Below, piece by piece: positions 1,335-29,737 of a DNA stretch of 32,189 nucleotides. The notes beneath the pieces were generated by a model, which did not search any database, was not told the origin of the DNA, and saw only the letters and a program-made list of their open reading frames with translations. Made by a program: the position numbers and the translations under genes. The stretch is from a virus (taxonomy: Duplodnaviria; Caudoviricetes). The DNA is taken from positions 1 to 32,189 of the IMG/VR virus record IMGVR_UViG_3300023172_000113; one strand, given 5' to 3'. Numbering within the stretch: the stretch's first letter is position 1; every line of letters starts with the position of its first letter.

Positions 1335-1343
1335 AAAATCGGC

Positions 1344-1390
1344 GTGAAAAATGGGGGCAGGGACAAAATTCCCTACCCCCGAAATTTCAC
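1344..1390. terminator. GC-rich hairpin between convergent modules
   Basis: GTGAAA..GGGGG-C-AGGGA / TCCCT-A-CCCCC..TTTCAC inverted repeat in the gap where + and - gene blocks converge. Confidence 0.65.
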
Positions 1391-1402
1391 AATAATGGGT
1401 CT

Positions 1403-2008: not shown

Positions 2009-3539
2009 CTTCTTTCACCTTTAATTTTACATATGTTTTTGTTTTTCTAACCTCTTCAAATAGATGCTTTACACTTTCCCAATGGCGATAAAATTTATTT
2101 CTTCCACATTGTTCATTCTTTCTGAATGCTTCAATCATCAAACGCTTATCAACCCAACCTGCGCTACCATCTATGGTCGTCTTTGGTTGTGTAGTATTGT
2201 AGGCATTAATAAACATTTTCTCGTTATACTTGTCAGCCAAACGCTTGGGTCGCTTTTTCAGTTTGTCCTCAAACCACTTTGTAATGGATTCAAAAGATTG
2301 GTCGGTCAAACTCCTACCTTGATTAATGTGTCGTGCAGTAATTTTAGGACTTCTTTCGCTGATTGCACAAAGGGCGGCGGCAATACAAATATTGTTAATC
2401 ATGTTCATAAAGAAGGTATTGATAGCAACATAGATATTATCATCAAAGCCATTCATGTATTTTTTCATAGCCGCCCAAACAATCTTAATTGCACCTTTTG
2501 CTTCTTCGGTCATTTCAAGAACCTTTCTTTTATCACCATCAACCTTTTCTAAACGCTGGTGAACCCACTTGTATGAAGAGTAAAGCATTTCAGCAAACTC
2601 TTCTTGGTATGGGGCTGCCCCACCATCATCTTCAATAATTTCCCCAATCATGTCCAAATAATCTTCCTCCATCTGACTCCTTAAAGACTCAGGGATTTCA
2701 CGCACATAAAGCCACATACGCTGGAAAACACCCTTTGTTAAGATAACTCTTTCTAATCCTTCGGGTGGTAGCGTGGTAGCCCAAAGAGAGCGTTGCGAAT
2801 CAACAATTAAATCTCTTCCAAAGTTAGTCAAACGCTTCTTGATTAGATGTGATTTAGAATCAAGACGGTTCATAAACTTCTGAAACAACATGACTGTTTC
2901 TTGCTTGTGTTGCGACTCCTTAAAAATACCAGAATGTTCAAACTCATCAAAAGCAATAATACCTGAACCATACAGACTCCCATAAATTGTCTTATCAATT
3001 GTTTCTTTAATATCATAGTCTTCTCCATTTGCTCTTGCTTCTCTTGCATCGGCCTTACTATAGTCTGGATTAGGTGCATCAATCTGCATTGTTCCTAATA
3101 AACCTTGGTCGGTAAAACTATCAGGGTTCTCAAGAGTAAATTCCTTTACGCCTGTAAGCGGTGTTTGGTTTTGAGTCGTAGGCCAAGCATTAACTAAATC
3201 AAAAGTTTTTGTCCAGACAGGTTCAAGAAAATCAAACATGGTTGTTTTACCACTTCTTGATGTTTGAATCCAACAGAAATGAATCCTCGGTTCAAGTGCA
3301 AGTCTCCCAACAGGAATCCTAACTATATCCTTTAGAATTTGCCCTAAAGTTACAAAGTATGACATTTGTGCTGGATATTCATTGTGGAGTGAAAACTGTC
3401 CCACTACATCTGTCCATTTTTTGACATTCTTTGGTAAATCTACTTTCTTTGAACGGATAGTTTCAAGTCCACTATCCGTGTCAGTAACTTTAGCCAAAGC
3501 ATCATACATTTCCCATTCATCTATATTTAAATCTTCCAT
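2001..3539 (-). CDS. MCM-like AAA+ replicative helicase
   Basis: Walker A TSRSGKTT, MCM-like Walker B IIAFDEFEH, Arg-finger-like FQRMWL, probable C-terminal winged helix; lies next to the primase in the replication block. Confidence 0.65.
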   Translation of the reverse strand: MEDLNIDEWEMYDALAKVTDTDSGLETIRSKKVDLPKNVKKWTDVVGQFSLHNEYPAQMSYFVTLGQILKDIVRIPVGRLALEPRIHFCWIQTSRSGKTTMFDFLEPVWTKTFDLVNAWPTTQNQTPLTGVKEFTLENPDSFTDQGLLGTMQIDAPNPDYSKADAREARANGEDYDIKETIDKTIYGSLYGSGIIAFDEFEHSGIFKESQHKQETVMLFQKFMNRLDSKSHLIKKRLTNFGRDLIVDSQRSLWATTLPPEGLERVILTKGVFQRMWLYVREIPESLRSQMEEDYLDMIGEIIEDDGGAAPYQEEFAEMLYSSYKWVHQRLEKVDGDKRKVLEMTEEAKGAIKIVWAAMKKYMNGFDDNIYVAINTFFMNMINNICIAAALCAISERSPKITARHINQGRSLTDQSFESITKWFEDKLKKRPKRLADKYNEKMFINAYNTTQPKTTIDGSAGWVDKRLMIEAFRKNEQCGRNKFYRHWESVKHLFEEVRKTKTYVKLKVKEDE

Positions 3540-4216
3540 TAATATTTCACCTCTTCTTCTTTGTTTAGTGCCTCAAGTATATTTTCAGCAGTTTTCTTTC
3601 CTATCCCTTTATGTTTTGATATAACACTAATTGTGGACATGGATATTTCTGCAATACTACCAAAGGTCTTTAGTAAGGCTTTTGCTTTTTCAACTGAAAC
3701 GCCTTTGATTTCAGTTAAAATGTCTACTCTAACATCGTCTGTTTTAATTTTCTTTGGTAACTCTTTGTGTATAACTAATTCTTTATCTATATGTTGTGTC
3801 GTTGCTACTATAATATGTGATGCTGTTTTGTAATTATCTACCCATATAGGTTTAACATCGGTGTGTAATGCGATAGAAGTTATTGCGCCAACGAACATTT
3901 GTTTCAATTTAACCCTCCAAGAAGATGTATTATATTGTGTTCTTTGAAGATATGAAATAGCATCGTCTAAAGTTCCATAAATTAATATAATGTTCTTATT
4001 ATAGGTCCTATCCATATTATCTAACTGATTAAAAATTCTTTTGTTTCTCACCGACTGTAAAAAGTCTGCGGCTGATTTTGCTTCAATACAGCAATCACCA
4101 ATAATATAATCTCCTATTTCCAACCATTTCTTTTCTGTTTCTATTTTAAGTCTCTCGGCAATTGTTTCTACTGCCCTACTTAACTGCGATTCTTCTCTAC
4201 TATCAATTATAATCAT
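3539..4216 (-). CDS. ERCC4/XPF-family structure-specific nuclease with HhH domain
   Basis: IIDSRE, L-x-IGDYII...IEAKS..DF..S core; C-terminal HhH2 (IKGVSVEKA...FGSIAEI...KGIGKKTA). Confidence 0.9.
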   Translation of the reverse strand: MIIIDSREESQLSRAVETIAERLKIETEKKWLEIGDYIIGDCCIEAKSAADFLQSVRNKRIFNQLDNMDRTYNKNIILIYGTLDDAISYLQRTQYNTSSWRVKLKQMFVGAITSIALHTDVKPIWVDNYKTASHIIVATTQHIDKELVIHKELPKKIKTDDVRVDILTEIKGVSVEKAKALLKTFGSIAEISMSTISVISKHKGIGKKTAENILEALNKEEEVKY

Positions 4217-5259
4217 TCACCATACCTCCAACATTTACCTACACACAGTCCTTCTTCAATCAATGTTTCACAATGAGGAGACATGTATCTCTTATCTACA
4301 ATAAATGATACTTGTTCTTGTGTCGTATATTGGTTATAATCAATCCAAATGTCTTCGTTTGATGCTATCAATTTAATCTCATTATTGATAATTGCTTTTA
4401 TATCAATCAAAGCGTCTCCAGATAATTGCCTTGGAGTGCATTTAAGTTCATTTTTCATAATTGCATATTCTGATAAAAACTCGTTATACCATTGAACAAG
4501 TAAAACTCTCGCACGATGATTAGGGTTTTCAACCATAATAGCATTTTTAAGACACGGTAAAATAGGTAAATCACCAGGACTTTCAACACTATGAATTTCA
4601 ACTTCCATGTTTTCCATCTTTTTAACAGACGGCCAAGACACTAAACGATGCCCAAAAACCGTAGGCTTTTCTTTAACAGGACCATTTTTAGATAAATCCA
4701 GTATATTTCTTATTCCAGAAGAAATAGTTTTGTCTGTAAGTGGAATACACCAACGGTTTGCACCGAGGTGATATGTATTTTGAACCCTTCTTAAACGACC
4801 TGTATTAATAACTACTGTATCAAGATAAGGACTTTTATCAATAACATCGTGACATATGTTAAAAAATGCTTTGATTTCACGAAGCGACCTTGCTTGAACA
4901 CCATAAACGAACATATGAAACCCACGACCTGAAAAAGAAACTGTATGTTTGTATTTCTTCTCTAAAAGCCAGCGATGTAAAACAAGCATATGTTCATATA
5001 AGTCACTCAATTCTTCTTCTTTTCCATGAGCATCAAAATCAAGAAATATTCTATCAAGGATAATTGAATACTCAAGACCACGATTATTTGAAAAATGTTC
5101 ATAATCATAAACCGATGTAAAAACATTCATCTTTCCGTTATACATTGAAATAAAATTCTTATACTCTGTAAGATTTTTTACAATAATTCTGGAAGGTTCT
5201 CTTGCTCTATTCCTTAGACTCCCTGCCCACATTTCTCTCGGAAAATACAAACTTTTCAC
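4213..5259 (-). CDS. Archaeo-eukaryotic primase, PriS fused to a PriL-like Fe-S C-terminal domain
   Basis: AEP motifs FLDFD, FSGRGFH, RLRRVQNT; C-terminal LPC...NHRARV...SPHCETL...LCVGKC. The true start may be the TTG (MYFPRE) just after the GAGGTGA RBS. Confidence 0.85.
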   Translation of the reverse strand: MKSLYFPREMWAGSLRNRAREPSRIIVKNLTEYKNFISMYNGKMNVFTSVYDYEHFSNNRGLEYSIILDRIFLDFDAHGKEEELSDLYEHMLVLHRWLLEKKYKHTVSFSGRGFHMFVYGVQARSLREIKAFFNICHDVIDKSPYLDTVVINTGRLRRVQNTYHLGANRWCIPLTDKTISSGIRNILDLSKNGPVKEKPTVFGHRLVSWPSVKKMENMEVEIHSVESPGDLPILPCLKNAIMVENPNHRARVLLVQWYNEFLSEYAIMKNELKCTPRQLSGDALIDIKAIINNEIKLIASNEDIWIDYNQYTTQEQVSFIVDKRYMSPHCETLIEEGLCVGKCWRYGE

Positions 5260-5341
5260 CTCTTCTTTTACTACAAATTGAACAGTATTTATTGATTCTT
5301 AGGGTAAGATATGCTTTGCAATCTTTACAATATTTTCCCAT
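5207..5341 (-). CDS. 44-aa CxxC...CxxC microprotein (not in ORF track)
   Basis: MGKYCKDCKAYLTLRINKYCSICSKRRGEKFVFSERNVGRESKE; the ATG directly follows the upstream stop. Confidence 0.55.
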   Translation of the reverse strand: MGKYCKDCKAYLTLRINKYCSICSKRRGEKFVFSERNVGRESKE

Positions 5342-5821
5342 CTAAATCATACCTGACTTTCTTTTTTCTTCTTCGGACATTAACTTAGTGTCTTGTCTAA
5401 TTCTTTCTTTTAAGGTCATTATAGCCTCATCTTTATCAACACTTGTTGTATCTGTTCCCATCTGTTTTTCATCAGGTTTTTGAACCTCTTCACTTTCTTC
5501 TTCAACTTTATCACTTCCAAAATCAACTGTTGCGGTCTTTAAAAAATTTGTTAATACAAATGAAACCATAATGTTTAGTTCTTTTCTAAGATGTTCAGAC
5601 ATATCCTTTGATAAATCTGATTGCGTAAGAATTTCCCATTTCATGCTATTATCCATATCACTAACTAGTGTATCAACAATGCTTTCTGTTATTTCTTCAG
5701 CATTAAGTATATCGTTAATAGTCCAAACTCTTCCTCTGATAACATCTTCAATAACACCGCTTTTTAGAAAAGTATGAACTTTTCCAACCTTATAAACTTT
5801 TTCAGCCTTAGAACCATTCAT
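5342..5821 (-). CDS. Hypothetical protein
   Basis: Likely start MNGSKAEK overlapping the end of the Cas4-like gene; acidic linker; no recognised motif. Confidence 0.6.
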   Translation of the reverse strand: MNGSKAEKVYKVGKVHTFLKSGVIEDVIRGRVWTINDILNAEEITESIVDTLVSDMDNSMKWEILTQSDLSKDMSEHLRKELNIMVSFVLTNFLKTATVDFGSDKVEEESEEVQKPDEKQMGTDTTSVDKDEAIMTLKERIRQDTKLMSEEEKRKSGMI

Positions 5822-6680
5822 ATTGGTCGCCACCGTCTGCCGCTTCACAATGGTCGTAATGTCCACAATGAATACACTTTTTGTAAAAGTAAGAAGCCTT
5901 AAAATCGTTCTCCATATAAGCATTAATTAATTTATCAATGGAGTTCAATACAGCAGTTTCAGAACGCTTACTAACCTTTTCAGCATAAACATAATTAGAA
6001 GCGGGGTAATACCAAGCCCAATGAGTAAATTTGATATTTGGGTCAAGACCATTTTCTAATAGCAATTCTCTATCGGCATTATCAAATAGCAACTTATAGA
6101 AAGCCATTTCTTTACGCATCATAGTTTTCTTACTATCTTTCCAAGCACCTGTTTTTAATTCCATAGGAATATAACCATTGTTCTCAAAAAACAGTCTATC
6201 AATAATACCCTGAAGGTGAACTGTAATACCACTTTCGGTTGTGAACTTGGCATCCAATTTAATCTCATTTCCAATAGGTATAAATGTATCAAGCGTATCA
6301 TCCTCTTTGCATTCAATAAATCTCTCAGTATTATATGCTGACATAGCCGTATAAAGAACTTCGTATTCTTCGTTGTCTGTTTCTGGGTATAGACTTCTAA
6401 AATGTTTTTGAAGTTCCATAGGATTTTCAACAAAATTTAAAGCGTCTTCAATTTTTACAATCTTCCAAAAGTCTTCTTGTGCGTTGTGAACAACAGTTCC
6501 TTTAATCATCGCAGGTGAAGTTTTTTGTTTAATGCTATCAATATAGTTATACTTGTATGACAAATTACAGAAGCCAAATGTTCCTATTGAAGATTTAGTA
6601 ATCTTCAACATTGGTCCTTCTTTATTATTTGGTTCCCATAAATATGTATATTCTCCGTTTTCTGTTCTCATTTCAATCAC
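5808..6680 (-). CDS. Cas4-like / RecB-type PD-(D/E)XK nuclease
   Basis: N-terminal Cys (FGFC), GTVVH, GIIDRL...MELKTG nuclease core, C-terminal CxxC-x5-C Fe-S ligands. Confidence 0.85.
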   Translation of the reverse strand: MIEMRTENGEYTYLWEPNNKEGPMLKITKSSIGTFGFCNLSYKYNYIDSIKQKTSPAMIKGTVVHNAQEDFWKIVKIEDALNFVENPMELQKHFRSLYPETDNEEYEVLYTAMSAYNTERFIECKEDDTLDTFIPIGNEIKLDAKFTTESGITVHLQGIIDRLFFENNGYIPMELKTGAWKDSKKTMMRKEMAFYKLLFDNADRELLLENGLDPNIKFTHWAWYYPASNYVYAEKVSKRSETAVLNSIDKLINAYMENDFKASYFYKKCIHCGHYDHCEAADGGDQYEWF

Positions 6681-6706
6681 CTTTTCTTTTGTTTTATCTG
6701 GGAGAA

Positions 6707-7189
6707 TTATTTCCTCCCGTTCTCTTTTTTTAGTTCGTCAATATATTGACTTGCCTCCTGTCTTGTTGTAATACCTTCCATATCTCCACCAAGTTTTTTA
6801 ATAAACTTGATTTGATTTTCAGTAGGTTCTTTATCAGCGTTTTCTTTGGAGACTTTCTTTGTTGCCCCTTCTAAGTTTGACCTTAGCATAGAAGCCGTAG
6901 TTAAATCATGACAACGCTTACACAATTCAACTACATTAGACCTTGCACTAATAAGATGGTCTAATCCTTCTTTCTTGCATTTATGTTGTGAAATAATGTG
7001 ATGCCATTCTGTATATCCATCAACACCTTTTTGTCCACAAATGGTGCAAGAACCTGTCTTAACCCACAGTTTTTGTTCTTCTTCTTGTAGTTCTGCAAGT
7101 CTAACTTCTAATAAATCAAATGTGTCTGATAACAATTGCATCTCACTTTTGATTTCTAATATCTCTTTAATATTGCTTTTATCTCTCAT
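6707..7189 (-). CDS. HNH endonuclease-domain protein
   Basis: CTICG...EWHHII...NVVELCKRCHD; N-terminal coiled coil; C-terminal PTENQIKFI...TRQEAS.YID module. Confidence 0.8.
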   Translation of the reverse strand: MRDKSNIKEILEIKSEMQLLSDTFDLLEVRLAELQEEEQKLWVKTGSCTICGQKGVDGYTEWHHIISQHKCKKEGLDHLISARSNVVELCKRCHDLTTASMLRSNLEGATKKVSKENADKEPTENQIKFIKKLGGDMEGITTRQEASQYIDELKKENGRK

Positions 7190-7190
7190 T

Positions 7191-9593
7191 TTACCACCAA
7201 CTATCTAATGTTGTTTGTCTGCCGTCGTTGGCTATTCCCATTAAATCCCACCTTAGAGATTCATAAATCAATTTGACTTTCTTAATAATTTCAGATTCAG
7301 CAAGTCTTTTCCAATTGATAGGGTAGAAGTCTTCTACTTCTTCATATTTCTTAAATGCAATATATTCTACATTCCTTGTTTTATCACCCACATTATATTT
7401 CGTTGGATATTTTTTGATGCCTTTATTATCTACATTGTAGTAATAATAACTATCACCAACTTCAATAGTCCCAATTTGTTCATTGTAAATCAATACACCA
7501 GCAGAACCTCCAGCGATTGAATCGTATTCGTCTAATGATTTTCTTAGACGAGTTCTTTTAATAACTGATTTAGGTTCATACTTTCCACCCTTTACAAGTT
7601 TATACATAGCCTTTGTGTATTTAGTAACATCATCTTCATTCTTCCCAGATGCTACCATTTCTAAAACTTTCTTTTGAACAGTCTTAGCCAACTTTGTTTC
7701 GTTTGATTTTTTCATCTCAAAGCCCATCACAAAGAATTGATTTTCTTTCAACCATACACCTTCCTTCCAAGATAGATAACCACAGTAGCGATTTTTCTTC
7801 ATAGATAGGAAAAAGGTTTCTGCAAACTTTTCAAACTCAAGAACCACATTGTCGTTAAATACTTCCTTCTGAATATATTCGTTTAGTTTAATGCACAACT
7901 GTTCAGCATCTGCAACATCTTTTACCTTAACGAAGATTGAATCCGTGTGTCCATAGATAACCGAATATCCCAACTCTTGTGATTTAAATGCAACGCTTCT
8001 CATAGCCTCTCTTGCTGATGCCGTGATTGCTTGAGCCATTTCCATGTCGCCCCAACCATACCCGTCTTTAGCCAAAACACCATAGAGGGCGTTCACACCA
8101 CGCTTTGTAGCCATTTGTGCTGAATCCCACTTTCTGTATTCTTCATCGTTCTTGGCTTCCTTACGCTTCTTCTTGTAATCATCACGCAATTTCATTAGGG
8201 TCAAAACCGCCTTTGGTAATACGCCTAACGAATCTTTGGTAAAGGAAACACTTGGTCTTTCTGGTTTGAACGCTACAAGGTTTTTAGGTGTAGCAAAATA
8301 CACTTTATGGGCATCTTGATTAAGGGTTTTTGTTTCCCATGAAATGTTTCGTGCGGCCATCATGCTTGGGTATAGAGATTTGAAATCAAAAATGGCTACA
8401 TTTTCATGTCTTCCGTATGTATCTTCTTCCTCAGGATTCATAACGAATGCCGCTTCATACTTTGTTTTATTTCCCTTAACACCTGTTGGTGCTTTCCAAT
8501 TAGAATGACGCATAAAATAAGCCGCACCCATTTGTGAATTATGAAACACGCACTCAAAAGGACAGATGAACAACTGTTGAAGTGCAATATCATTCTGTGT
8601 AATGTTCATCTCATTATCCATGCGAACCATCAATTCTACATCTACTCGGTTATACTCAAGAAATGTTTCACTATCTTCTAACCAAGAGCGCAAGAAAAAT
8701 TCATCCTCATCAAATTTAGAAGTTTTAGAAACCTTACCAGCATCTTGACCAAGAACCAATTTAGAACAGTCGTCTAATTTAAGAGATGGTAAAGTTCCTC
8801 TTTGTGCATCAAGCCAAAGTCGTTCAAAACGAGTCATAAGACAATATGTAATTCTACCCTTGATTGGTTGAGCCGTATTGGTATAATTGATATTGTATAA
8901 TTTGGTATCAGAAACCCCACGCACTTCACGGTGAGGACTTAACTTTCGTGGACTAATACCATTGTGGTGCATTCTTTCAATAATCTTAGGAATATCAAAA
9001 CCAAGAAGATACCAACCAATAATCATATCTGGGTCTTTATCTTGCATAAATTCAACGAATGCTTCCAACAAGTCATGTTCATCCTCATAAACCAATACGC
9101 CGTCATATTGTGGTAGTGGCTCTTGTGGAAAATGAGTCATAATAAAATATCTTTCATCGTATGAATCGTAAAAGGTCAAGGCGTTAATTTGTCCATCATA
9201 ACGACCACCCACTTGTGTTTCAATATCAAGATACCATTTTCGCATTTTGTATTCAGGGATTTCAGTAAGTCTATCATTAGCATATTTACGGGCAAGTGAT
9301 ATATCACCTTCATATGTATACTCCCAATTATCACGGGCTTCATACAAGTCTTGGACTGTATTAAACGAAACCTTAATTAGTTTGCGATTATCAAGTGAAT
9401 GATAATCACCAAAGTTATACTGAGGTTTAATACTCTCCATCCAACGCTTTTTAGTGGGTATGGTTGAAGGCATTTCATCACCTTGACGAATAAAGAAGTA
9501 GGGTTTGAAAGATTCAACCGTTTCTGTTTTTCTTTCACCATTTTCGTCTCGCCAACGCAATTCAACATTATTTTTTGCTTCACTAATAATCAA
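7191..9593 (-). CDS. polB: Family B DNA polymerase
   Basis: Exo motifs YLDIET, GFDIP, YNRVDV; polymerase motifs FDFKSLYPS, KxxxNALYG, YGHTDS, KKNRY; C-terminal PIP box QTTLDSWW. Confidence 0.97.
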   Translation of the reverse strand: MIISEAKNNVELRWRDENGERKTETVESFKPYFFIRQGDEMPSTIPTKKRWMESIKPQYNFGDYHSLDNRKLIKVSFNTVQDLYEARDNWEYTYEGDISLARKYANDRLTEIPEYKMRKWYLDIETQVGGRYDGQINALTFYDSYDERYFIMTHFPQEPLPQYDGVLVYEDEHDLLEAFVEFMQDKDPDMIIGWYLLGFDIPKIIERMHHNGISPRKLSPHREVRGVSDTKLYNINYTNTAQPIKGRITYCLMTRFERLWLDAQRGTLPSLKLDDCSKLVLGQDAGKVSKTSKFDEDEFFLRSWLEDSETFLEYNRVDVELMVRMDNEMNITQNDIALQQLFICPFECVFHNSQMGAAYFMRHSNWKAPTGVKGNKTKYEAAFVMNPEEEDTYGRHENVAIFDFKSLYPSMMAARNISWETKTLNQDAHKVYFATPKNLVAFKPERPSVSFTKDSLGVLPKAVLTLMKLRDDYKKKRKEAKNDEEYRKWDSAQMATKRGVNALYGVLAKDGYGWGDMEMAQAITASAREAMRSVAFKSQELGYSVIYGHTDSIFVKVKDVADAEQLCIKLNEYIQKEVFNDNVVLEFEKFAETFFLSMKKNRYCGYLSWKEGVWLKENQFFVMGFEMKKSNETKLAKTVQKKVLEMVASGKNEDDVTKYTKAMYKLVKGGKYEPKSVIKRTRLRKSLDEYDSIAGGSAGVLIYNEQIGTIEVGDSYYYYNVDNKGIKKYPTKYNVGDKTRNVEYIAFKKYEEVEDFYPINWKRLAESEIIKKVKLIYESLRWDLMGIANDGRQTTLDSWW

Positions 9594-9793
9594 TCTATCA
9601 CATCCATTTCTAATAGTCTGTCATGTAAGTAATTACATTGTTCAGGTAATACATGACATTGACCGCTTGCTCGGTAACCTCTAATATAAATAGCGGGTTG
9701 TCCTTTAAATATAACGCCATTACAAAGTCTACATCTTGCTAAACCTGTTCCTTCTTTTACTCCAAAACCAACAGGCATTATATCACAATCCAT
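9590..9793 (-). CDS. Small CxxC...H...C zinc-finger protein, paralog of 21714..21929
   Basis: GTGLARCRLCNGVI...GYRASGQCHVLPEQC; likely start MDCDIM or MPVGF. Confidence 0.65.
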   Translation of the reverse strand: MDCDIMPVGFGVKEGTGLARCRLCNGVIFKGQPAIYIRGYRASGQCHVLPEQCNYLHDRLLEMDVID

Positions 9794-10823
9794 GAGGTTG
9801 TGCTTCAATTTGACCTGCTTGTGTAACACGACAAAATCTTGCATTGTTTCTAAATTCTTCTAAATTGATAGCACCGACATAACTCATTGACGACCTAACA
9901 CCATCGTTAATATCTTGGACAATCCTACATACCTTACCTTTGTAGGGAGTAATCTTTGAATTACCTTCTACATTTTTAACTTCTTCACCACGAGCCAATT
10001 TAGAATCAATGGATGCAGACCCTTGATATTTCTTAAACAATTTCTCATTAGGCCATTGTCCTGTTTTCGCAATAGAGCCTGGAGTTTCTTTTGTTCCTGA
10101 AAACAAAGAACCAATCATAACTGCATCTGCACCAAGAGCCAAAGCCTTAGCAACATCACCTGTTGTTTTAATTCCACCATCAGCAATAATAGATACATCT
10201 AATGATTCTTCTTCAAGGAAAGAATAAATATCGTTTAATGCGGTTGCTTGAGGAACACCTACTCCAGCCCTAATACGGGTTTCACACATTGAACCATTAC
10301 CAATTCCGACTCTAAGAGTATCAGCACCTTCCTTGATTAAGTCCATAGCACCTTCCTTAGAAACAATGTTGCCTACCATGACATGAATATCTTCATATTC
10401 CCTCTTGACATAACTAACCATTTGCATAGGCAAGGAATGATGGCCGTTAGCAACATCAATACAAACACCTTTAAGTTGGGTATAATTTATAATTTTATCC
10501 AAACGGTCTTGCCCCGATTCACCAACACCAACAGCCGCCATATAATTACGAACACCATTAGCATCTATTTCATCACACATATCAACCTGTTCATCAATAC
10601 TTTGAAAACGATGTAGCACACCCATTCCCCCAAGTTTAGATAATTCAACGCACATATCAACACCACAAACGGTGTCCATAGGAGATGCAATTAATGGTGT
10701 AGCAAGAGAATAATCTCCAATGTTGGTATATAATTCACAATCTCCACGACTGTTAATACCAGACCATGTAGGTATAATACTAATATCATCGTAGGTTAAA
10801 CTCATTCTTTCTTCAATCTTCAT
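9783..10823 (-). CDS. guaC: GMP reductase (GuaC-like) of the IMPDH/GMPR family, no CBS domains
   Basis: SPMDTV, IDVANGH, catalytic loop [23 protein letters not shown]. The flap YQGSAS...KNVEG resembles Bacillus-type GuaC and lacks the IMPDH Arg-Tyr dyad. Family is certain; GMPR versus IMPDH is inferred. Confidence 0.75.
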
Positions 10824-11071
10824 TTTTTCTCTCTCCCTAATACTTTATTTTCATCAATTTTTAAGTCACCAAGAACCCATCGGAGGGCGTAAATGACTCC
10901 CTCTAATCCTTTGTAGTTTCTCATGTGTTTCATAAGAAGCGGTTTTGGTTTTCTTGTTTGTAGTGCCGTTAGATGTTTGTTTTGTTCTCTTTCGGCTTTA
11001 TTCAACAAGTCTTCTATTTCTTCCCATGTTCTTTCATAGGAAAAGTTTTCACTATCTTGATGGTCGTTCAT
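10820..11071 (-). CDS. Hypothetical helical protein
   Basis: ATGA-coupled on both sides; LEGVIYALRWVLG motif. Confidence 0.65.
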   Translation of the reverse strand: MNDHQDSENFSYERTWEEIEDLLNKAEREQNKHLTALQTRKPKPLLMKHMRNYKGLEGVIYALRWVLGDLKIDENKVLGREKK

Positions 11072-11262
11072 TCATATCCCTCCAATGTATGACTTACATT
11101 ATACATGTAGTCGTATTTAGTTAGTCCAGCAAGGTTAAATTTTTGATAGACCACTACACCGTTATAACAGGCTTTACAACACTTACCTTCCATAACAGGT
11201 TGAGCATTATATGTTTCATCAAGATGTTCTTCTTTACAAATGCAACATTTATTGCTCTTCAT
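11068..11262 (-). CDS. Small Cys-rich zinc-finger protein
   Basis: KCCICKE...YNAQPVMEGKCCKACY; likely start MKSNK or MTIKM. Confidence 0.65.
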   Translation of the reverse strand: MKSNKCCICKEEHLDETYNAQPVMEGKCCKACYNGVVVYQKFNLAGLTKYDYMYNVSHTLEGYE

Positions 11263-11467
11263 CTTTATTGTCATTTTTGGCGGCCTCCATTTTACATATA
11301 GGACATTCGCTTGTAATAAGGTCTTTACACCATCCACCGCTATGAATAATTCCTGCGGCTTCAATATTAAGTGCGTTTGTCATATATTGAATCATGCTTA
11401 CCATTTGTAGTAGCATATCCAATGCAGATGCTCGGCTTTCCAATTCTTTATTTTGTTCTTCATTCAT
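11249..11467 (-). CDS. Hypothetical protein with H-x4-C...CxxC
   Basis: 72-aa ORF directly downstream of PCNA. Confidence 0.6.
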   Translation of the reverse strand: MNEEQNKELESRASALDMLLQMVSMIQYMTNALNIEAAGIIHSGGWCKDLITSECPICKMEAAKNDNKDEEQ

Positions 11468-11471
11468 TTTA

Positions 11472-12239
11472 TCAACCTTCTGTTCTTGGTGCTCTCAGTA
11501 ATTTATAGTCGCCATTTATAACTGAGATTGGCGATTCGTCATTGTATGAAATAATAGTAATTCCATTATTCAAGTATTTATAAAACGGTGCGGAAAACTC
11601 AACGATAGCATCATCACCAATAGATTCAATTGCTTCAATGTTAATTGCAACCGATTCATTTTCTTTGGTAGAAGATACGGTAAGTCCAGAATCCGCAACG
11701 AAGTTTAACTTGTATACCGAGTTACCCACATTCTCACAATCCTTAAATGCATCTACTAATTCATCCGTAGGGATTTTGATTCTTGTAGATAGAGATGTTC
11801 TTGCACTAATAACAACGGGCTCTTCTAAAACACGACTCATAGTAATATTAGAAATACTATGAATAATGTTATCGTTATATTGGTGTCGTTCAAGAAGAGG
11901 TAACTTTACAGTCTTCTTTTCTGTGCTAATCTTAAGTAAGTTATCTTCCAAAGAAAATACACTTACTTCATTACCAAGATACTTTAAAAGTATATCTGTA
12001 TCAATAGCAAAACGACCAGCAACCGTGTTCTCATATTCAATAAGAGAAATTTTATTCTCTACAAATGTTGCAGGGTCAGCGTTCCAAACACTACATTTCA
12101 TCTCTTCAACATCAACGCCCATAATAATAGACGATGAAAGAGTGGTTAGTTTGTTGTTTGAACCGTAGTTCCACTTACCTTTAAGCAACACGCTTTCAAT
12201 CTTTTCTTTCAATTCTTTTCCATTCACTTTAAACTTCAT
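11472..12239 (-). CDS. pcn: PCNA-like DNA sliding clamp
   Basis: 255 aa with two-domain clamp size and pattern; C-terminal ESPI...LLRAPR matches the PCNA P...LAPR ending; RFC and PIP-box partners are present. Confidence 0.75.
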   Translation of the reverse strand: MKFKVNGKELKEKIESVLLKGKWNYGSNNKLTTLSSSIIMGVDVEEMKCSVWNADPATFVENKISLIEYENTVAGRFAIDTDILLKYLGNEVSVFSLEDNLLKISTEKKTVKLPLLERHQYNDNIIHSISNITMSRVLEEPVVISARTSLSTRIKIPTDELVDAFKDCENVGNSVYKLNFVADSGLTVSSTKENESVAINIEAIESIGDDAIVEFSAPFYKYLNNGITIISYNDESPISVINGDYKLLRAPRTEG

Positions 12240-17814: not shown

Positions 17815-19316
17815 TAAATCAACTCTTCTAATTGTGTTGGTTGGTCTTTATCATCTCGGTATTTTACATAGCGAGGGAATCGCAAACCATACTCTCCGTT
17901 TTCATTTTGAGTGAGAATGTCGCCCTTGACTTCAATAATCATATTCCCTGCACCTAATGTATTATACTGCTGGCTTAAGAAGTTTAGGTCTGATTCTGTA
18001 AAACCTGAACCTACCCAACCAATAGGAACTAAGTCATTTCCATTCTTAATAGCAATCTTAAAAGAAGCATAAACACCAACACGCTTTCCACGACCTTCTG
18101 CCGCATCAGTAATAATACAATCAACATCAACCAATGGCGGTTTGTATTTAGCCCAATCCTTAGACCTTGCACCAAATTGATAAATGGCGTTAGGTGATTT
18201 AACAATAACACCTTCATAACCAGATTCAATTGCTTCATTATAGACATCTAAAAACTCTTCATGGCTTTCAATTTCCACCGTATGTGCGAGAATATCCTCG
18301 CCAAAGTGCATATTCAAAGTTTGAAGTCGTGTGTTCAATGGGTCTTCAAACACAGGTTGTCCACCATACATCAAACAATCAAACAAAACAAGTTTAACTT
18401 CATGACGATAAATAACCTCTTCAGTCTTCCCATGAATACGACTCATGATATTTTTGAAATCAGCAGGGTTTCCATTGGTATCAACAGGGAAAATCTCACC
18501 ATCAACAATCCAATCCACGGGGTCTGTGTTTTCTTTAATAATTGGGATGAGGTCATTTTCAAACTTGGAGGTAATATTATCACCCTTTCGGTTATAGATG
18601 GTAATACCATCTTCGTTCTGATGAATCTGAGCACGAATTCCGTCGTATTTGTAATCACAAAATTTCTTTCCACGAACTGTAAAGTTGATATTTTTAGCAA
18701 GCATTGGATTCATATAATTCCCTGCTTCGGGAACACATACAATCGCACCATTTGATACAGACTGTTCAATACATTCTCCCATGCTCAAAAAGGAGGTAGC
18801 CTTCTTAATATCATCATTAGGAACACCGTAGGTCTTATTCATAATTTTCTTAACAACATTCTTACCACATTTGTTGCGGGTTTCGTTGAGAGCAAATGCT
18901 AACATCCAACGCTTCCCAATGTGATTTAGCGAGTCCCATGCGGCCATGAGCAAACCATAGGTTTCTTCACGGTCATAGACAGGACTACTCAAGGCATTGT
19001 GAATACTCCTAACTGTAATTAGCGTATTGTTATGTTCATTACCTTCAGTTAATTCCTCAACCGCTTCACCAAGTCCACCGAAGGTGTCAATAAAACCTTC
19101 AATAACATCTACATCAACATTCATTTTTTCTGCAATACGGCTGATTAGTCCTGCTTCACCCACACCTTTATTCGGGTAATTTCCTGCCCAAAGATTTAGC
19201 ATAGAGATAGCCTGCTGTTCATCTGTATTGATGTTTTCATCATAATATTTCACCATTTGTGTAGGTGTCATAGTCATAAATCTCTCGTTAATTTCTGCAA
19301 ATTCATTCCAATTCAT
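17814..19316 (-). CDS. lig: ATP-dependent DNA ligase
   Basis: KYDGIRAQIH, VDGEI, FDCL, EGVIVK, WAKYK, LRFPRY; start reassigned to MNWNEF. Confidence 0.95.
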   Translation of the reverse strand: MNWNEFAEINERFMTMTPTQMVKYYDENINTDEQQAISMLNLWAGNYPNKGVGEAGLISRIAEKMNVDVDVIEGFIDTFGGLGEAVEELTEGNEHNNTLITVRSIHNALSSPVYDREETYGLLMAAWDSLNHIGKRWMLAFALNETRNKCGKNVVKKIMNKTYGVPNDDIKKATSFLSMGECIEQSVSNGAIVCVPEAGNYMNPMLAKNINFTVRGKKFCDYKYDGIRAQIHQNEDGITIYNRKGDNITSKFENDLIPIIKENTDPVDWIVDGEIFPVDTNGNPADFKNIMSRIHGKTEEVIYRHEVKLVLFDCLMYGGQPVFEDPLNTRLQTLNMHFGEDILAHTVEIESHEEFLDVYNEAIESGYEGVIVKSPNAIYQFGARSKDWAKYKPPLVDVDCIITDAAEGRGKRVGVYASFKIAIKNGNDLVPIGWVGSGFTESDLNFLSQQYNTLGAGNMIIEVKGDILTQNENGEYGLRFPRYVKYRDDKDQPTQLEELI

Positions 19317-19683
19317 TATTCCACTCTCCAAATTCTTCTTCTTCTTCTTCTTCTTCTCTTCTATGTTTCCACGGTGCTTCGTTTTCAAGCATCATGGCTC
19401 TTTCAACCTTCTCTTGTTGAGAAAGTTCTTCTTCTTCTGCTTGTTTTTCCACCTGAGGGGAACGGGTAAGCAAATCCTCCATTCTCAAAAATGCAAGTTT
19501 GACATCATGTATAGTCAATCGCTTGTTTGATTCTTCACCTCCAGCCTGAAATTCACACATAGAGGCATAAATCTCCAATAGTGATTTTGCCCTAAAAGCA
19601 AATTCTTCCAATGTAGATTCAGGTAATTGACGGTTTGGTGCAACCGTTCTAAATATTTCTCTTACTTCTCTTTTACTAACCAT
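19303..19683 (-). CDS. Histone-fold protein with acidic C-terminal tail
   Basis: Short helix (KREVREIFR), loop RQLP, long central helix, then KRLTIHDVKLA (cf. RKTIxxEDIxLA); poly-Glu tail. Confidence 0.6.
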   Translation of the reverse strand: MVSKREVREIFRTVAPNRQLPESTLEEFAFRAKSLLEIYASMCEFQAGGEESNKRLTIHDVKLAFLRMEDLLTRSPQVEKQAEEEELSQQEKVERAMMLENEAPWKHRREEEEEEEEFGEWNNELE

Positions 19684-20099
19684 TTTTCCATACTCTCCTT
19701 TTGATAAAAGTATTTCGGATTTTCATTCTTATCAAGGCTCAGCGCAATCCAAACCGAACCACTTAACGAATCTATTCGTATTACTTCATAACCATTTGCT
19801 ACTATTTCAGTATCAATCTCTGGTGTTTTTCCATATAGTCTGGATAACTCACTTGAGACAACTTTTATATTATCAGCAACATATTTTATAATCAGAGGTC
19901 TTTGTATTTCTACATAAGGCGTGTATTCTAATTCATACTCTCCTGTTTGATTACAAACATTACAACCAGCCCCACTACATATAGGACAAACGATGCACAT
20001 ATTCGTTAATACGGGAAACCTTACTCTTCTGACTCGTCTGCTATCCACACTTTTGTGTGTCTCAAAATCTGATGGTCTTCTTCCTTTTCCCATGTGCAA
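19662..20099 (-). CDS. Hypothetical protein with CxxCxGxGCxxC zinc finger
   Basis: CPICSGAGCNVC; exact start uncertain. Confidence 0.6.
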   Translation of the reverse strand: MHMGKGRRPSDFETHKSVDSRRVRRVRFPVLTNMCIVCPICSGAGCNVCNQTGEYELEYTPYVEIQRPLIIKYVADNIKVVSSELSRLYGKTPEIDTEIVANGYEVIRIDSLSGSVWIALSLDKNENPKYFYQKESMEKWLVKEK

Positions 20100-20467
20100 T
20101 ACTCTCCATTACCTAACACAATTGCCGAATCAAGAATTGGTCGCTGAACCCTCAAGGTATTCCAATCGGTCTGACTAAAATAAGCCTTACCGAATGGGTG
20201 GGTATGAATCCAACATTTCATAGGAATAGTCATACCCTTAACACTCTCATCTTTATAATCAACAAATGAGGCCGTTCCCTTACTGATAAACAACTTTTCA
20301 TCACGGTCAATTACTACTGAAACTTCAAGGCCAGGAAGTCTAGTAGTGCTTAAATCCCAAATAGCACCCCAGAACTGTTCTGTGTTTCCATAATGTTTAT
20401 ACACATTTTTAAGAAAACGCTTTTCTTTATTCCATTCACTTAGGGTAATTTCTTCATCTTCTATCAT
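20021..20467 (-). CDS. JAB/MPN+ (JAMM) metalloprotease
   Basis: Upstream Glu (LEVSV) and H-x-H-x7-S-x2-D: WIHTHPFGKAYFSQTD; start MIEDEE. Confidence 0.85.
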   Translation of the reverse strand: MIEDEEITLSEWNKEKRFLKNVYKHYGNTEQFWGAIWDLSTTRLPGLEVSVVIDRDEKLFISKGTASFVDYKDESVKGMTIPMKCWIHTHPFGKAYFSQTDWNTLRVQRPILDSAIVLGNGEYCTWEKEEDHQILRHTKVWIADESEE

Positions 20468-20471
20468 TTTT

Positions 20472-21002
20472 TCACATCCATTTTGGTTTTGCTCGCTTAG
20501 TGTATTTACTTCGCCAACTGTTCCATTGTTTATCACCACGATAATAATTTCGGTATGCTTGAATAGAGCATTCCGTTTTGTATTCATCAGGCATACATTG
20601 GGGTGGCTGGGTAAATCCATTATCCTCAATTAACATTGGAGGATTACGCAAGACTTCTCGCAAGCATCTGTCAGTCTTGTGTTCTTTCCCATAACGATAA
20701 GTGTATTCTATACAAAGGGCTTCAAACAATTCGTATGTCCATTGATAATGCTGAAGACTTGAACGAACCCAAATAGTAGAGGGGTGGCTGATATGTGCAG
20801 TTTTATAGAGAACATTGAGTTTGTCTTCGGGCAACTTTTGAAACACATATTCATCATCGTCATTACAATAATAGTATTGGTCTACAACACGATGAGCCGT
20901 TGAAAGCATTTGAGCAGTTTCAAGAATCATCTTGATACAATGTGCATCATTGTGCATAACTGCGGCAATGTTTGGATTTTCATGCAAGTAAAAAATATTC
21001 AT
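20472..21002 (-). CDS. Pyrimidine-dimer DNA glycosylase-like protein (DenV/Pyr_excise family)
   Basis: MNIFYL...HCIKMILETAQMLSTAH...YKTAHISHPSTIW...EYTYRYGKEH...AYRNYY. Confidence 0.8.
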   Translation of the reverse strand: MNIFYLHENPNIAAVMHNDAHCIKMILETAQMLSTAHRVVDQYYYCNDDDEYVFQKLPEDKLNVLYKTAHISHPSTIWVRSSLQHYQWTYELFEALCIEYTYRYGKEHKTDRCLREVLRNPPMLIEDNGFTQPPQCMPDEYKTECSIQAYRNYYRGDKQWNSWRSKYTKRAKPKWM

Positions 21003-22007: not shown

Positions 22008-22574
22008 TCACCCGTTAATCCTAAAGTGCTTTTCCACATAGTTCCCAATGAAATAATTTTGCATCCATTGAGCACCATAACCTGCAATAACAACCTGCAT
22101 AAACTTTACACCTTCTGGCTTTCCATCCCAATCATTACCTTGACATGAAAATGAACCATCAGGCCCGCTTGTAAATGCATTGTAAAACTTAGGGTCTTCT
22201 TGAAATGAAATCATAGCCGCATTCCTTCCTTGCGCTCTTAGGTCAAGCCATTTAACGCCTGAGTTATACATAACCCTACGAATATCAAGATTATCAGCAC
22301 AACAGACAACCAAATCAAATCCTTCAATCTGATTAGGGGTTAAAACAGGGAAGGGCTTAGCCACGATTTTATATCGCTTAGCCATAGCATCTACCTTTTT
22401 TGTATCAATTTCCATCTTAGAGAAGTTTTGGTAGGAAATATTCTTTTCTTCCACAATATCAGGGTCATAAACCGTCATATTGTAGAGTCCAGTCTTATCC
22501 AAAAGTGGAATAAGGAAACTTCCAATTCCACCTGCCCCAATAATCAGCACATTTCTCGTTTTTACATTCTTCAT
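22008..22574 (-). CDS. ThiF/MoeB/E1-family ubiquitin-like activating enzyme
   Basis: IIGAGGIG, YDPDIVEEKNISYQ, KVDA, DLVVCCADNLDIR; candidate catalytic Cys in SFSCQ; no CxxC Zn pairs. Confidence 0.9.
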   Translation of the reverse strand: MKNVKTRNVLIIGAGGIGSFLIPLLDKTGLYNMTVYDPDIVEEKNISYQNFSKMEIDTKKVDAMAKRYKIVAKPFPVLTPNQIEGFDLVVCCADNLDIRRVMYNSGVKWLDLRAQGRNAAMISFQEDPKFYNAFTSGPDGSFSCQGNDWDGKPEGVKFMQVVIAGYGAQWMQNYFIGNYVEKHFRING

Positions 22575-23194
22575 ATTTTCACCTTCTTTATATTTCTTTT
22601 TAGTCTCGGCAAACTAATGCCTAATTTTTCACACACTTCTTTTTGGGTATATGATGTGTGGACATATACAAAAGCAGCAATAACACCTCTTGTCAAGGTT
22701 TCTTGCTCTTCCCAATCTTTACAAGCCTTAGCAACTTGTGGATTATCAATTCCGTGATTAGACAAAAACTCGTCAATATCATTTAAACCAAACACTCCAG
22801 AATTTGAATAGTATCTTGCAATCTTCCTGCTAAGTTTAGAGCCCTTACTTGGTCTACATCCTAAAAACTTACAGTAATCTCTCAGTATTGCTGGTCTATT
22901 ATTATCTCTCATCGTGTAATACAAAATTGCACAGGCTCTTTCGGCCAAATCATATCCTTGATACAGCGTTGTTTTGCTGATATGAACATGATTTTTATTG
23001 ACCTCATCAATTATATCAATATCAAATTGATTACATAGTAATAGTAACTCAGAAGTCTTTACCTCTTTTACTTCAGTTAGTCTTCCGATTTCTATAATCC
23101 TATATGCTTGTATGCAACCACATTCTTGACAAACGGGCAACCCAATATCACGATTTAATTTCAGGTGCTTCGCTTGACAATTCACACACGGCAT
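22571..23194 (-). CDS. TFIIB/TFB-like protein
   Basis: N-terminal Zn ribbon CVNC...VCQECGCI; two cyclin-like repeats (ACAILYYTMR, IAAFVYV); BRE-binding-type HTH TQKEVCEKLGIS. Confidence 0.7.
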   Translation of the reverse strand: MPCVNCQAKHLKLNRDIGLPVCQECGCIQAYRIIEIGRLTEVKEVKTSELLLLCNQFDIDIIDEVNKNHVHISKTTLYQGYDLAERACAILYYTMRDNNRPAILRDYCKFLGCRPSKGSKLSRKIARYYSNSGVFGLNDIDEFLSNHGIDNPQVAKACKDWEEQETLTRGVIAAFVYVHTSYTQKEVCEKLGISLPRLKRNIKKVKI

Positions 23195-24395
23195 CCCAAT
23201 CCAACCTAATATCCTGTTGATTTTCAGCATGATGTTGTATGTATCGTGAAACCGTTGAAACAAGTTTCTTCAACATAGAATCATTTTTACAAGCAAATGC
23301 TCTTGCGGCAAATTGGTCACCTTTTGTAGCACCGTTACTTAGGTTGTCAATACAAATCGGGCCAGACCATTTTGCAACTCTATCAGTATTGTTAATAATA
23401 GGATGACTAAATGGGACTTTTTGAGCCTCTCCAGCAGTTCCTGTCGTTAAAACATAGGTTGAAACATCCTGAATGCCACGCTTTGACTGATTATCAACAA
23501 TCATCCAATCTGCATATTTACCACGAACAAACATTGCAAGGACACCGTTATGCTGACCCTTAGTAATTTCAGGGTAATCACGACACATATTCTCAAACAA
23601 TTGCATGGCTCGCTTTTCAGCACCTTCGGGCTTACGGTTCTGCTTTAGAAACTCTTTCATAACTTTAACTTGAGCCATTGTAGGTTTCTTACCCACAGTT
23701 TGATAATATAACTTGGCTGGAGGCAAATTAGACCATTTCTTAGAACGCTTACGCCCGACAAGATAACTGTCCACCAACGAATTCAATTCCTTAACACCAA
23801 TTTGACCCCATAGACCAGAAGTAATTTCAATTGCGAATTGGTCTTCATCAATTTGCATCAGATTCAAACGAGTTAAACGCTTATGAATTTCATTACCTTC
23901 TCGTTCATAAAAATGGTAAGGCACACGGTTTTCCATAGCATATGCTACATTCTCAGGGATGTTAATACATCGGTTAAGGTAATCGTCAAGTGCTTCTTGT
24001 GCTTCTACACCTTTACCGTCTAAATAAGCGGCTCTCATAATTGTCCTTGATAATGCTTTAAGAATAATTTCTACATTACACTTTTCACCGTTGATAGCGT
24101 ATCGTGCACCATCTTTGTGAATAGAAATTAAATAACGACAACGACCAATACGGAAAAGAACAGGTCGTGGACTTCGCCTAACAATACCAATAATATCATT
24201 ATTTTTCAATGATTGATAGATAGACTGAATCGTTGGTTCAGTAGCATCAGAACGATTACCTCGTCGTGCATAAATATCTACATTTCTACTTCTTCGTATA
24301 TTTCTTGATGATAGTGGTGTTTCTAAGATACTCGTTCTATCATCTGATGCATGTCTAATTCTAAAATTTAATGTTTCTTCACTCATTTTTTCCAC
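23148..24395 (-). CDS. Large protein with a C-terminal E2/UBC-like motif
   Basis: PFSHPIIN...SGPICIDNL resembles the E2 active site HPNI...GxICLDIL; two genes upstream of E1. The CDS is secure; the E2 call is tentative. Confidence 0.5.
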   Translation of the reverse strand: MEKMSEETLNFRIRHASDDRTSILETPLSSRNIRRSRNVDIYARRGNRSDATEPTIQSIYQSLKNNDIIGIVRRSPRPVLFRIGRCRYLISIHKDGARYAINGEKCNVEIILKALSRTIMRAAYLDGKGVEAQEALDDYLNRCINIPENVAYAMENRVPYHFYEREGNEIHKRLTRLNLMQIDEDQFAIEITSGLWGQIGVKELNSLVDSYLVGRKRSKKWSNLPPAKLYYQTVGKKPTMAQVKVMKEFLKQNRKPEGAEKRAMQLFENMCRDYPEITKGQHNGVLAMFVRGKYADWMIVDNQSKRGIQDVSTYVLTTGTAGEAQKVPFSHPIINNTDRVAKWSGPICIDNLSNGATKGDQFAARAFACKNDSMLKKLVSTVSRYIQHHAENQQDIRLDWDAVCELSSEAPEIKS

Positions 24396-25413
24396 CTACA
24401 ATTTGCATAATTTTATTCAATTGTTTCTCACTCAACTCTTTTCCAATCATAACTTGATTTATGATACTTTCAATGAAACGCTTTTCCCAATCATTACGAC
24501 CATCCTCTACTGAAAATAGGGGCAAATCATACAAAGCCAATGCTTCTTCAATGGCCTCACTTGCTCTATTTTGGTAGACGGAGGCCTTTATATCCTTTGC
24601 AATAATTTTAGTAGGGTTAATATATTCCATTCGGGCTTGTCTCTCTTCGTCTTTGTTATCCATCATTCGTGTAAAGCGTTCCTTCTTAGCAAACAAAAGT
24701 TGCACATCACGCCATAGTTTTTCATTAGGATAACCACGGGTTTCAATTTGTTTTCTTGGATTATTGGGATGATTCCAACGCCAAACTACTGAGGCCATAT
24801 TACCCAAAGAACCACTTTTCGTTTTAGCAATTACATATTGTGGTTCATATCGTCGGGTTGCATGGGAATAACGATTACCCTTATTGCGAACATTGACTCG
24901 CAAATCCAACTCTTTAACTTCGTTGAACAATTCTTCCCATTCATCACCATATTCATTCCACCACCATTCAGCCTTCATTGACTTAACTGCTTCTTTCAAC
25001 CATTCTTGAATCAATTCTTCAGTAATGGTGTCAGGGTTTAGACCTTTATTTTCAATCAAGTGGCGAATAATCATCCAATTAGTGATGTGTTCGCTACCAA
25101 GAATTTCAAGATTTCCATTCTCAGTATTTTCAATTTCAAAATGCCATGCAATCTCATGTCCACAGATACAATAATGTGGGTGTTTAGCCAAATGTTCTGG
25201 GGGTAGTCGGTTTGGATTATCACGCAAAGGAATATACCATGTATTTCCCGTTGCCTTCCATTCATGTTTTGCTTGTTCCCAATCATCCGAAACTGATTCT
25301 GCTGTTAGTCGTTCAATTAAAGCCTTATTCAAAGCACCTGAACGATTAACATTAATAACATCAAGTTGTTCGCCAATAGCATGATGTGTTTCTACAAAAT
25401 CATTCATGGTCAA
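24379..25413 (-). CDS. Hypothetical protein with CxCGH...GSEH metal-binding motif
   Basis: YCICGHEIAWHF...ILGSEHI; C-terminal WEKRFIESI...LSEKQ module. Confidence 0.7.
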   Translation of the reverse strand: MTMNDFVETHHAIGEQLDVINVNRSGALNKALIERLTAESVSDDWEQAKHEWKATGNTWYIPLRDNPNRLPPEHLAKHPHYCICGHEIAWHFEIENTENGNLEILGSEHITNWMIIRHLIENKGLNPDTITEELIQEWLKEAVKSMKAEWWWNEYGDEWEELFNEVKELDLRVNVRNKGNRYSHATRRYEPQYVIAKTKSGSLGNMASVVWRWNHPNNPRKQIETRGYPNEKLWRDVQLLFAKKERFTRMMDNKDEERQARMEYINPTKIIAKDIKASVYQNRASEAIEEALALYDLPLFSVEDGRNDWEKRFIESIINQVMIGKELSEKQLNKIMQIVGGKNE

Positions 25414-25672
25414 ACCTCCTAAATGCTATCTGCTCTTCCAAATGCGTGTCGCACAGTTCATTAAGTTTGGAATGCAACGATTCTGTAATTCCAGGAATTG
25501 TGTTTCGGTGCAAAGCCAACCAGACATTATGATATTGGTTAAGAACAATAACCAAACCATTGTTATCCTCGTGAGACTTAATCACGACAGGGGGCATTTC
25601 TTCGCTGTTAATCAGCCTAAATTCTACTTCTTTTCTTTTTCTTCCATTTCCAATTGGTGTCATATTTATCAC
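25400..25672 (-). CDS. Hypothetical protein
   Basis: Coupled to neighbouring genes; no recognised motif. Confidence 0.65.
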   Translation of the reverse strand: MINMTPIGNGRKRKEVEFRLINSEEMPPVVIKSHEDNNGLVIVLNQYHNVWLALHRNTIPGITESLHSKLNELCDTHLEEQIAFRRFDHE

Positions 25673-29216: not shown

Positions 29217-29423
29217 TTACTCGTTTCCACCAACAATTGCCTGAGCGAGCATAACTTCATTGACTTCATCAAAGTTGATGTTGGTAATATCCTCACGAGT
29301 TACGAGTTCTCCATCAACATAAGTCCAATGAGTCGGATGCTCAATAATCTGGTCAAGAACCTCACTTGCAGAAAGAGAAAGTTCGGTGTGTCCCGTTTCA
29401 TTCAAAATCGTCAATTTCACCAT
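29217..29423 (-). CDS. Ubiquitin-like (ThiS/MoaD/SAMP beta-grasp) protein precursor
   Basis: 68 aa; VDGELV (cf. ThiS VNGEIV); terminal strand EVMLAQAIVGG followed by a 2-aa extension NE. Confidence 0.75.
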   Translation of the reverse strand: MVKLTILNETGHTELSLSASEVLDQIIEHPTHWTYVDGELVTREDITNINFDEVNEVMLAQAIVGGNE

Positions 29424-29428
29424 TTATC

Positions 29429-29737
29429 TCACTCTCCAAAAACAGGTCGGCCTTCCGAAGTAAATTCACCACCATTAGTCAAATGCTTGACAACGGCCTT
29501 TTCCATCTTTCGGCGGGTTGAAGCAATTCGCTTTTCGCTGATAACTCCAAGAGTCAAAAGCGTGTTCAGCGTTTCGTTGATGTATTCGCTTGCAGTTGCG
29601 TATTGCTCTTTTTGCGTTGCATCAAGATAAACTCCACCCGTTGCACGACTCATAATTCGTCGCATTTCAAACTCGGTAATGAGTCCTTCGTTCATTTGTT
29701 CATTCAGTTGTTGTTCCAATTGGTTCACATCAGTCAT
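29429..29737 (-). CDS. Hypothetical protein, first gene after the promoter
   Basis: AGGTGA RBS; directly upstream of the Ubl gene. Confidence 0.7.
   Translation of the reverse strand: MTDVNQLEQQLNEQMNEGLITEFEMRRIMSRATGGVYLDATQKEQYATASEYINETLNTLLTLGVISEKRIASTRRKMEKAVVKHLTNGGEFTSEGRPVFGE

Follow-up and report, generated by a model that had tools for sequence, protein, structure and literature searches.

A predicted E2-like protein with a conserved cysteine and its linked putative ubiquitin-like gene row in a virus record fitting the magroviruses

The virus record IMGVR_UViG_3300023172_000113 carries on its minus strand a gene for a protein in which a divergent E2-like domain around a conserved cysteine (Cys348) is supported by the predicted fold, the invariance of the cysteine and the gene context. 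The window analysed here is the entire linear record of 32,189 bases, which is 29% complete according to CheckV. We consider it fairly probable that this protein is the E2 of a virus-encoded ubiquitin-like (Ubl) cascade, with a thioester on Cys348 and transfer to targets without a separate E3. Because an E2-like fold is predicted around an invariant cysteine and the gene lies in a conserved row with a likely Ubl tag, E1 and trimming protease, protein tagging with a modifier of the virus itself is likely. The gene and its parts are as follows, with residues numbered as in the 415-amino-acid open reading frame (ORF):

23148..24386, minus strand: E2-like protein, 412 amino acids from the ATG at 24386 (the longest ORF, from the GTG at 24395, has 415)
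23634..24386, minus strand: N-terminal region, residues 4-254, a predicted alpha/beta unit
23226..23633, minus strand: UBC/RWD-fold (E2-like) domain, residues 255-390, predicted fold
23370..23450, minus strand: variable loop from strand 4 to the cysteine, residues 316-342, holding a non-conserved HP; 11-77 residues in 81 homologs
23352..23354, minus strand: Cys348, predicted catalytic cysteine, in 81/81, 72/72 and 92/93 rows

A sequence-only reading of this DNA had described a 415-amino-acid protein at 23148-24395, the string PFSHPIINNTDRVAKWSGPICIDNL in it, a cysteine codon at 23352-23354, a beta-rich segment ahead of the cysteine and a helix containing GDQFAARAF. All of these were recovered, the ORF of 415 codons lying on the minus strand, the cysteine codon being TGT and the helix spanning residues 358-370. 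The true start is likely the ATG at 24386, because the ESM Atlas record begins there and close homologs align from there.

Conserved cysteine and predicted fold

The homolog search gave 237 proteins, and 80 of the 120 listed were aligned with the query (81 sequences). A full HMMER search with a C-terminal profile gave 149 hits among 50%-identity cluster representatives, from which 92 apparently full-length hits and the query made up a deep alignment of 93 rows; shorter hits and one 1,617-amino-acid repeat protein were left out. Conservation of the cysteine, which the sequence-only reading had proposed to check, was found at both depths. The stretch G-P-I-C-I-D-N (G345-N351) was identical in all 81 sequences, and Cys348 was kept in 92 of the 93 rows at 20-57% identity, where G345, P346, D350 and N351 vary. 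In the sole row lacking it the C-terminus is degraded, and this row was removed before the 92-row alignment made later. Judged from these alignments, the conservation of the cysteine motif is far beyond chance. Eight further positions (G292, Q309, D360, Q361, R365, N371, D372 and T381) were held in 91-93 of 93 rows, and Cys348 is the only Cys or His column above 40% in the deep alignment.

For the final 140 residues, the predicted fold is that of a ubiquitin-conjugating (E2) enzyme; the comparison with UBC folds that had been suggested earlier thus gave a UBC/RWD-like fold. The predicted structure has the E2 topology of an N-terminal helix, a four-strand meander and C-terminal helices, and in terms of topology only, Cys348 lies past strand 311-319 and the loop, 10 residues ahead of helix 358-370. 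Structural matches had a root-mean-square deviation (rmsd) of 3.5-4.5 A, with 4-12% identity in most aligned rows.

Of the 38 families matched by the 81 members at E values up to 1, 25 were listed, and the Pfam family UQ_con (PF00179) is absent from these; it also had no match (0) in the virus record itself. HHalign against Prok-E2_A, Prok-E2_B and Prok-E2_D gave probabilities of 0.15%, 0.54% and 1.2%, respectively, with thin profiles of 9, 10 and 4 sampled members. Membership in Prok-E2_D (class 6d) was rejected for want of an invariant His C-terminal to the cysteine, no His column of the E2-like domain exceeding 15/93 rows, and membership among the BilB (CEHH) E2s for want of a conserved His next to the catalytic cysteine. 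The protein also differs from the inactive RWD/UEV class, in which the catalytic cysteine is lost, by its conserved Cys348. As for HPN, the PF00179 trait about 10 residues ahead of the cysteine, HP(x0-1)N occurred in 0/81 sequences. The sequence-only reading had relied on a "displaced HPN" (HP...N), and this argument had to be given up: H331/P332 sit in the loop of 11-77 residues and HP is found in 8/81 sequences, so that the resemblance is a lineage-specific coincidence. Its claim of a divergent E2 therefore stands for the domain and its cysteine and falls for the motif. With the His and HPN tests failed, the protein was not placed in those families, and on the modelled structure it is a separate family within the UBC fold.

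The N-terminal region had been described as a basic part of about 280 residues. It is shorter, about 250 residues, with the E2-like domain beginning near residue 255; its basic character holds here (net charge +14) and is moderate across homologs (median +7, range -3 to +16). Residues 4-254 were predicted to be well folded alone (AF2 pLDDT 90.9, pTM 0.78), and a structure search with this region gave no coherent fold match. The mean share of the top residue was 0.60 over residues 146-254, which contain the motifs ENRxPY, AxEISxGxW and QNR, versus 0.55 over the E2-like domain, while residues 4-146 were less conserved. When a RING/HECT/RBR pattern of Cys and His was sought in 92 rows, no Cys column except Cys348 reached 30%, and the two N-terminal His columns stood at 33/92 and 36/92; an E3 of these classes was thus rejected, there being no conserved Zn-binding Cys/His or catalytic Cys. 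The region may recruit substrate in place of an E3, as had been suggested, or can be read as an adaptor to a conserved partner.

The linked genes and the virus

Four genes on the same strand complete the row or overlap it:

29217..29423, minus strand: Ubl candidate of 68 amino acids with the end AIVGG-NE, GG invariant in 47 rows
22571..23194, minus strand: TFB-like gene, with a Zn ribbon CxxC...CxxC and, in homologs, TFIIB repeats; adjoins the E2-like gene in 79/80 loci
22008..22574, minus strand: minimal ThiF/MoeB-type E1-like adenylyltransferase of 188 amino acids, Pfam ThiF E 9e-16, with E1 matches in the PDB
20021..20629, minus strand: JAB/JAMM protease-like gene, E...HxH-x7-S-x2-D, Prok-JAB E 0.0066 here and 1.4e-4 in a homolog

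The main context set comprised the best 80 of 184 viral loci, three of them identical to the window and others redundant. Within it the E2-like gene was accompanied by the E1 in 76/80, the JAB gene in 73/80 and the Ubl candidate in 59/80 loci, in the order Ubl-E2-E1-JAB on the same strand in every case; wherever a partner was missing, the flank was shorter than the largest distance observed. A divergent clade had the E1 and JAB genes in 14/14 and the Ubl candidate in 10/14 loci. When the loci were instead collected by their E1 (the best 80 of 301 viral and the best 80 of 408 metagenome loci), the E2-like gene was found in 62/62 viral and 30/30 metagenome loci with at least 3.5 kb upstream; the sets overlap and are not independent. 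The row thus kept a fixed order in every relative whose contig extends there, down to about 20% identity. The elements of a Ubl-E1-E2-JAB system, namely a linked GG-ended modifier, an E1 with its cysteine and a JAMM protease, were all present.

In the E1, which begins nearly at the Rossmann fold, Cys144 of SxSCQ (codon 22143-22145) is invariant. Its best family matches are ThiF/MoeB sulfur-carrier adenylases; matches to TIGR03736 (E 8.6e-9, weak and far below cut-off) and to the SAMP-activating E1 model (E 1.2e-7, below cut-off) were also seen. The JAMM residues E102, H142, H144, S152 and D155 of the protease-like gene were invariant in 66 rows, and its true start probably lies inside the ORF. 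In the Ubl candidate, 0-9 residues follow the GG (59 loci). The TFB-like gene begins inside the E2-like gene and shares its final 47 bases; the two overlap in most loci, and the first CxxC codon of the TFB-like gene lies at most 150 bases from the E2-like stop in 76/79. The overlap suggests translational coupling.

Several other conserved genes were noticed nearby, all on the minus strand. Immediately upstream lies a 344-amino-acid gene (24379-25413; 55/80 loci) with an H-x-H-x-C-x-C-x-H...H cluster and no family match, then an unannotated 90-amino-acid ORF (25400-25672; 64/80). Beyond the JAB gene are an unannotated 145-amino-acid ORF, CxxC zinc-finger-like (19662-20099; 69/80), and a histone-fold-like gene with an acidic tail (19303-19683; 66/80 by a local profile; homolog Pfam CBFD_NFYB_HMF E 0.008). 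The two unannotated ORFs could be further components.

The minus strand of the window also encodes PolB, a clamp loader, an ATP-dependent ligase, ERCC4 and PD-(D/E)XK nucleases and ribonucleotide reductase (RNR), and an IMPDH/GMP-reductase-family gene (9783-10823, minus strand) adjoins PolB. Magroviruses are tailed viruses of 90-100 kb with a replication module of archaeal type (PolB, clamp loader, ligase and TFB). Such a module is present here, and the top PolB matches among GenBank phages were haloarchaeal tailed viruses at about 25% identity. The record agrees with descriptions of the Poseidoniales magroviruses in the available part of PMC5434244, which places them among the most abundant ocean virus groups, and in PMC10768690; this assignment is by gene content alone, and the virus is taken to be marine with a presumed archaeal host. 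Neither virus nor host is in culture. Related virus records measure 92-96 kb, and in one record of 184.7 kb the gene row occurs in two differing copies, perhaps because assembly joined two genomes. A pattern scan of 185,579 GTDB genomes matched two contigs, both in bacterial metagenome-assembled genomes and both probably misbinned viral DNA. A contig from a bacterial metagenome-assembled genome, probably a misbinned virus, carries the same row at 884-11924 (RNR, a strongly diverged E2-like gene, TFB, E1, JAB, zinc finger, histone-like and GroES/GroEL-like genes).

Parts of the region are contained in 15 salt-marsh metatranscriptome runs (2018). Contigs from four of these cover parts of the E2-like ORF; strand and level are not readable from contigs, and DNA may be present. 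In three of the four runs the deepest RNA-library contigs were those covering the Ubl gene and the gene next upstream of it (29217-29737, minus strand). Their depths were 57.8, 85.6 and 34.2, compared with about 3-7 for the E2-like gene, a lead at most, as contigs cannot rank genes.

Proposed mechanism and alternative explanations

The sequence, the invariance of the cysteine, the gene order and the co-occurrence of the genes are direct observations, and the fold is a prediction; we infer the chemistry and the targets as follows. The JAB protease would trim the residues past the GG of the tag, after which the minimal E1 would adenylate Gly66 and hold the tag as a thioester on Cys144. The tag would then move to Cys348, again as a thioester, and be ligated by the E2-like protein onto a target lysine with no E3. 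The invariant Q309, D360, Q361, R365, N371 and D372 would stand in for the HPN and His of classical E2s, and the target would be chosen by the conserved N-terminal region together with the variable loop ahead of the cysteine. Candidate targets would be the product of the overlapping TFB-like gene and proteins of the host's transcription or replication.

Several observations call for caution about such a cascade. Besides the absence of HPN and of any conserved His, the top structural rows include RWD domains and Mediator chains. In the E1, an invariant Tyr48 replaces the Arg of the SNLxRQ motif; the ATP-binding Arg may come from invariant R99, R113 or R117, or from a partner protein. The Ubl candidate has no Pfam or PDB sequence matches. 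The whole module is syntenic, with the ligase (65/80) and RNR (60/80) travelling along, and distance correlations favour the Ubl genes no more than the ligase.

The first two of these points, together with the near-constant, closely spaced TFB-like neighbour, would suit a non-catalytic RWD/UEV-like scaffold that acts with the TFB-like protein in viral transcription, Cys348 being structural. We judge this improbable. RWD/UEV domains lack a conserved cysteine in the available part of PMC1779556, whereas Cys348 is more conserved than its neighbours, past strand 4 and a loop and amid invariant polar residues; moreover, the virus has Ubl, E1 and JAB candidates, and the window showed no second candidate for an E2. 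Just as improbable is that the protein carries the tag on its cysteine in the same cascade, the product being something other than a protein isopeptide: a sulfur relay via host sulfur enzymes, or a tag on DNA, RNA or a small molecule that the basic N-terminal region would bind. The setting among DNA replication and nucleotide genes (PolB, RFC, ligase, RNR), the ThiF/MoeB affinity of the E1 and the basic median charge agree with it, but the charge is modest and variable, and a search of four related virus records for rhodanese, TtuA-type and desulfurase families found none, with controls detected in 13-14 of 14 genomes. Sulfur relays are not known to use an E2-fold protein. Least probable, and very much so, is a counter-defence decoy, in which the protein or cascade absorbs or reverses a host ubiquitin-like system with no dedicated target. 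Bil and type II CBASS, the related bacterial systems, are antiviral defences (PMC11601596, available part), but the fixed order in every reaching relative is more in keeping with a core function than with an accessory of an arms race, and the virus has its own tag candidate and E1.

Those prokaryotic E1-E2-Ubl systems that have been tested to date (Bil, type II CBASS) defend the host against phages, whereas in the present case the virus itself encodes the entire Ubl-E1-E2-JAB set. What distinguishes true conjugation to proteins from a sulfur relay of MoeB type is the E2-like protein; its lack of HPN or His implies a different way of activating the thioester, and its N-terminal region of about 250 residues is an unmatched fold. 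A bolder version, which we hold tentatively and rather doubt, is that magroviruses have at their core a complete, self-contained Ubl cascade, whose His-less E2 of a new family is fused to a target-selecting module of new fold and tags either the viral TFB, through its translational coupling, or transcription proteins of the host, switching transcription in infection. A prokaryotic virus would then employ ubiquitin-like conjugation for its own cycle, rather than a host for defence. In print, the viral E1 has been listed among auxiliary genes as MoeB/ThiF, and ubiquitination was remarked on (PMC8276007, available part; PMC10160649); in our literature searches, which covered some supplements in part only, neither the E2-like protein nor the complete set was described.

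Comparison with known systems

By analogy, we propose that the E2-like protein would work like BilB and the class 6d E2s, which are compared here from the available parts of PMC10557695 and PMC1779556. BilABCD, a host defence, comprises a Ubl that requires JAB trimming, an E2 (BilB), a JAB and an E1, without an E3. BilB is a stand-alone domain with a conserved His next to its cysteine and a divergent loop from strand 4 to the catalytic cysteine, proposed for target choice, and the Bil E1 is a large IAD-AAD-CYS protein with Zn (PMC10557695). The present set resembles Bil in having Ubl, E2, JAB and E1 without an E3 and a divergent loop between strand 4 and the cysteine; it differs in being viral, in its 188-amino-acid E1, and in an E2 with about 250 extra residues and without the conserved His.

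Class 6d operons (Iyer-Burroughs-Aravind; Prok-E2_D PF14460/PRTRC), found in bacterial genomes and mobile elements, have separate Ubl, JAB, E1 and E2 genes, and their E2s lack the classical His and have an invariant His after the cysteine (PMC1779556). Shared with them are the separate genes, the missing classical His, a similar GxICx motif (best HHalign register, non-significant) and the weak match of the E1 to TIGR03736. Unlike class 6d, the present protein has no invariant His after the cysteine and no significant profile match, and lies in a viral replication module.

The predicted helix, four-strand meander, cysteine and helices are shared with canonical UBC proteins (PF00179; UbcH5, Ubc9 and I215L of African swine fever virus, ASFV) and with RWD/UEV domains. 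The lack of HPN and of a Pfam match, the high rmsd and the low identity set the protein apart from the former, and the retained invariant cysteine from the inactive latter.

Archaeal sampylation is a host-encoded system of SAMP, UbaA and JAMM proteins, for which no E2 is known. The present row is like it in its archaeal setting, GG-ended small protein, ThiF-type E1 and JAMM protease; unlike sampylation, it includes an E2-like protein, and the set is encoded by the virus.
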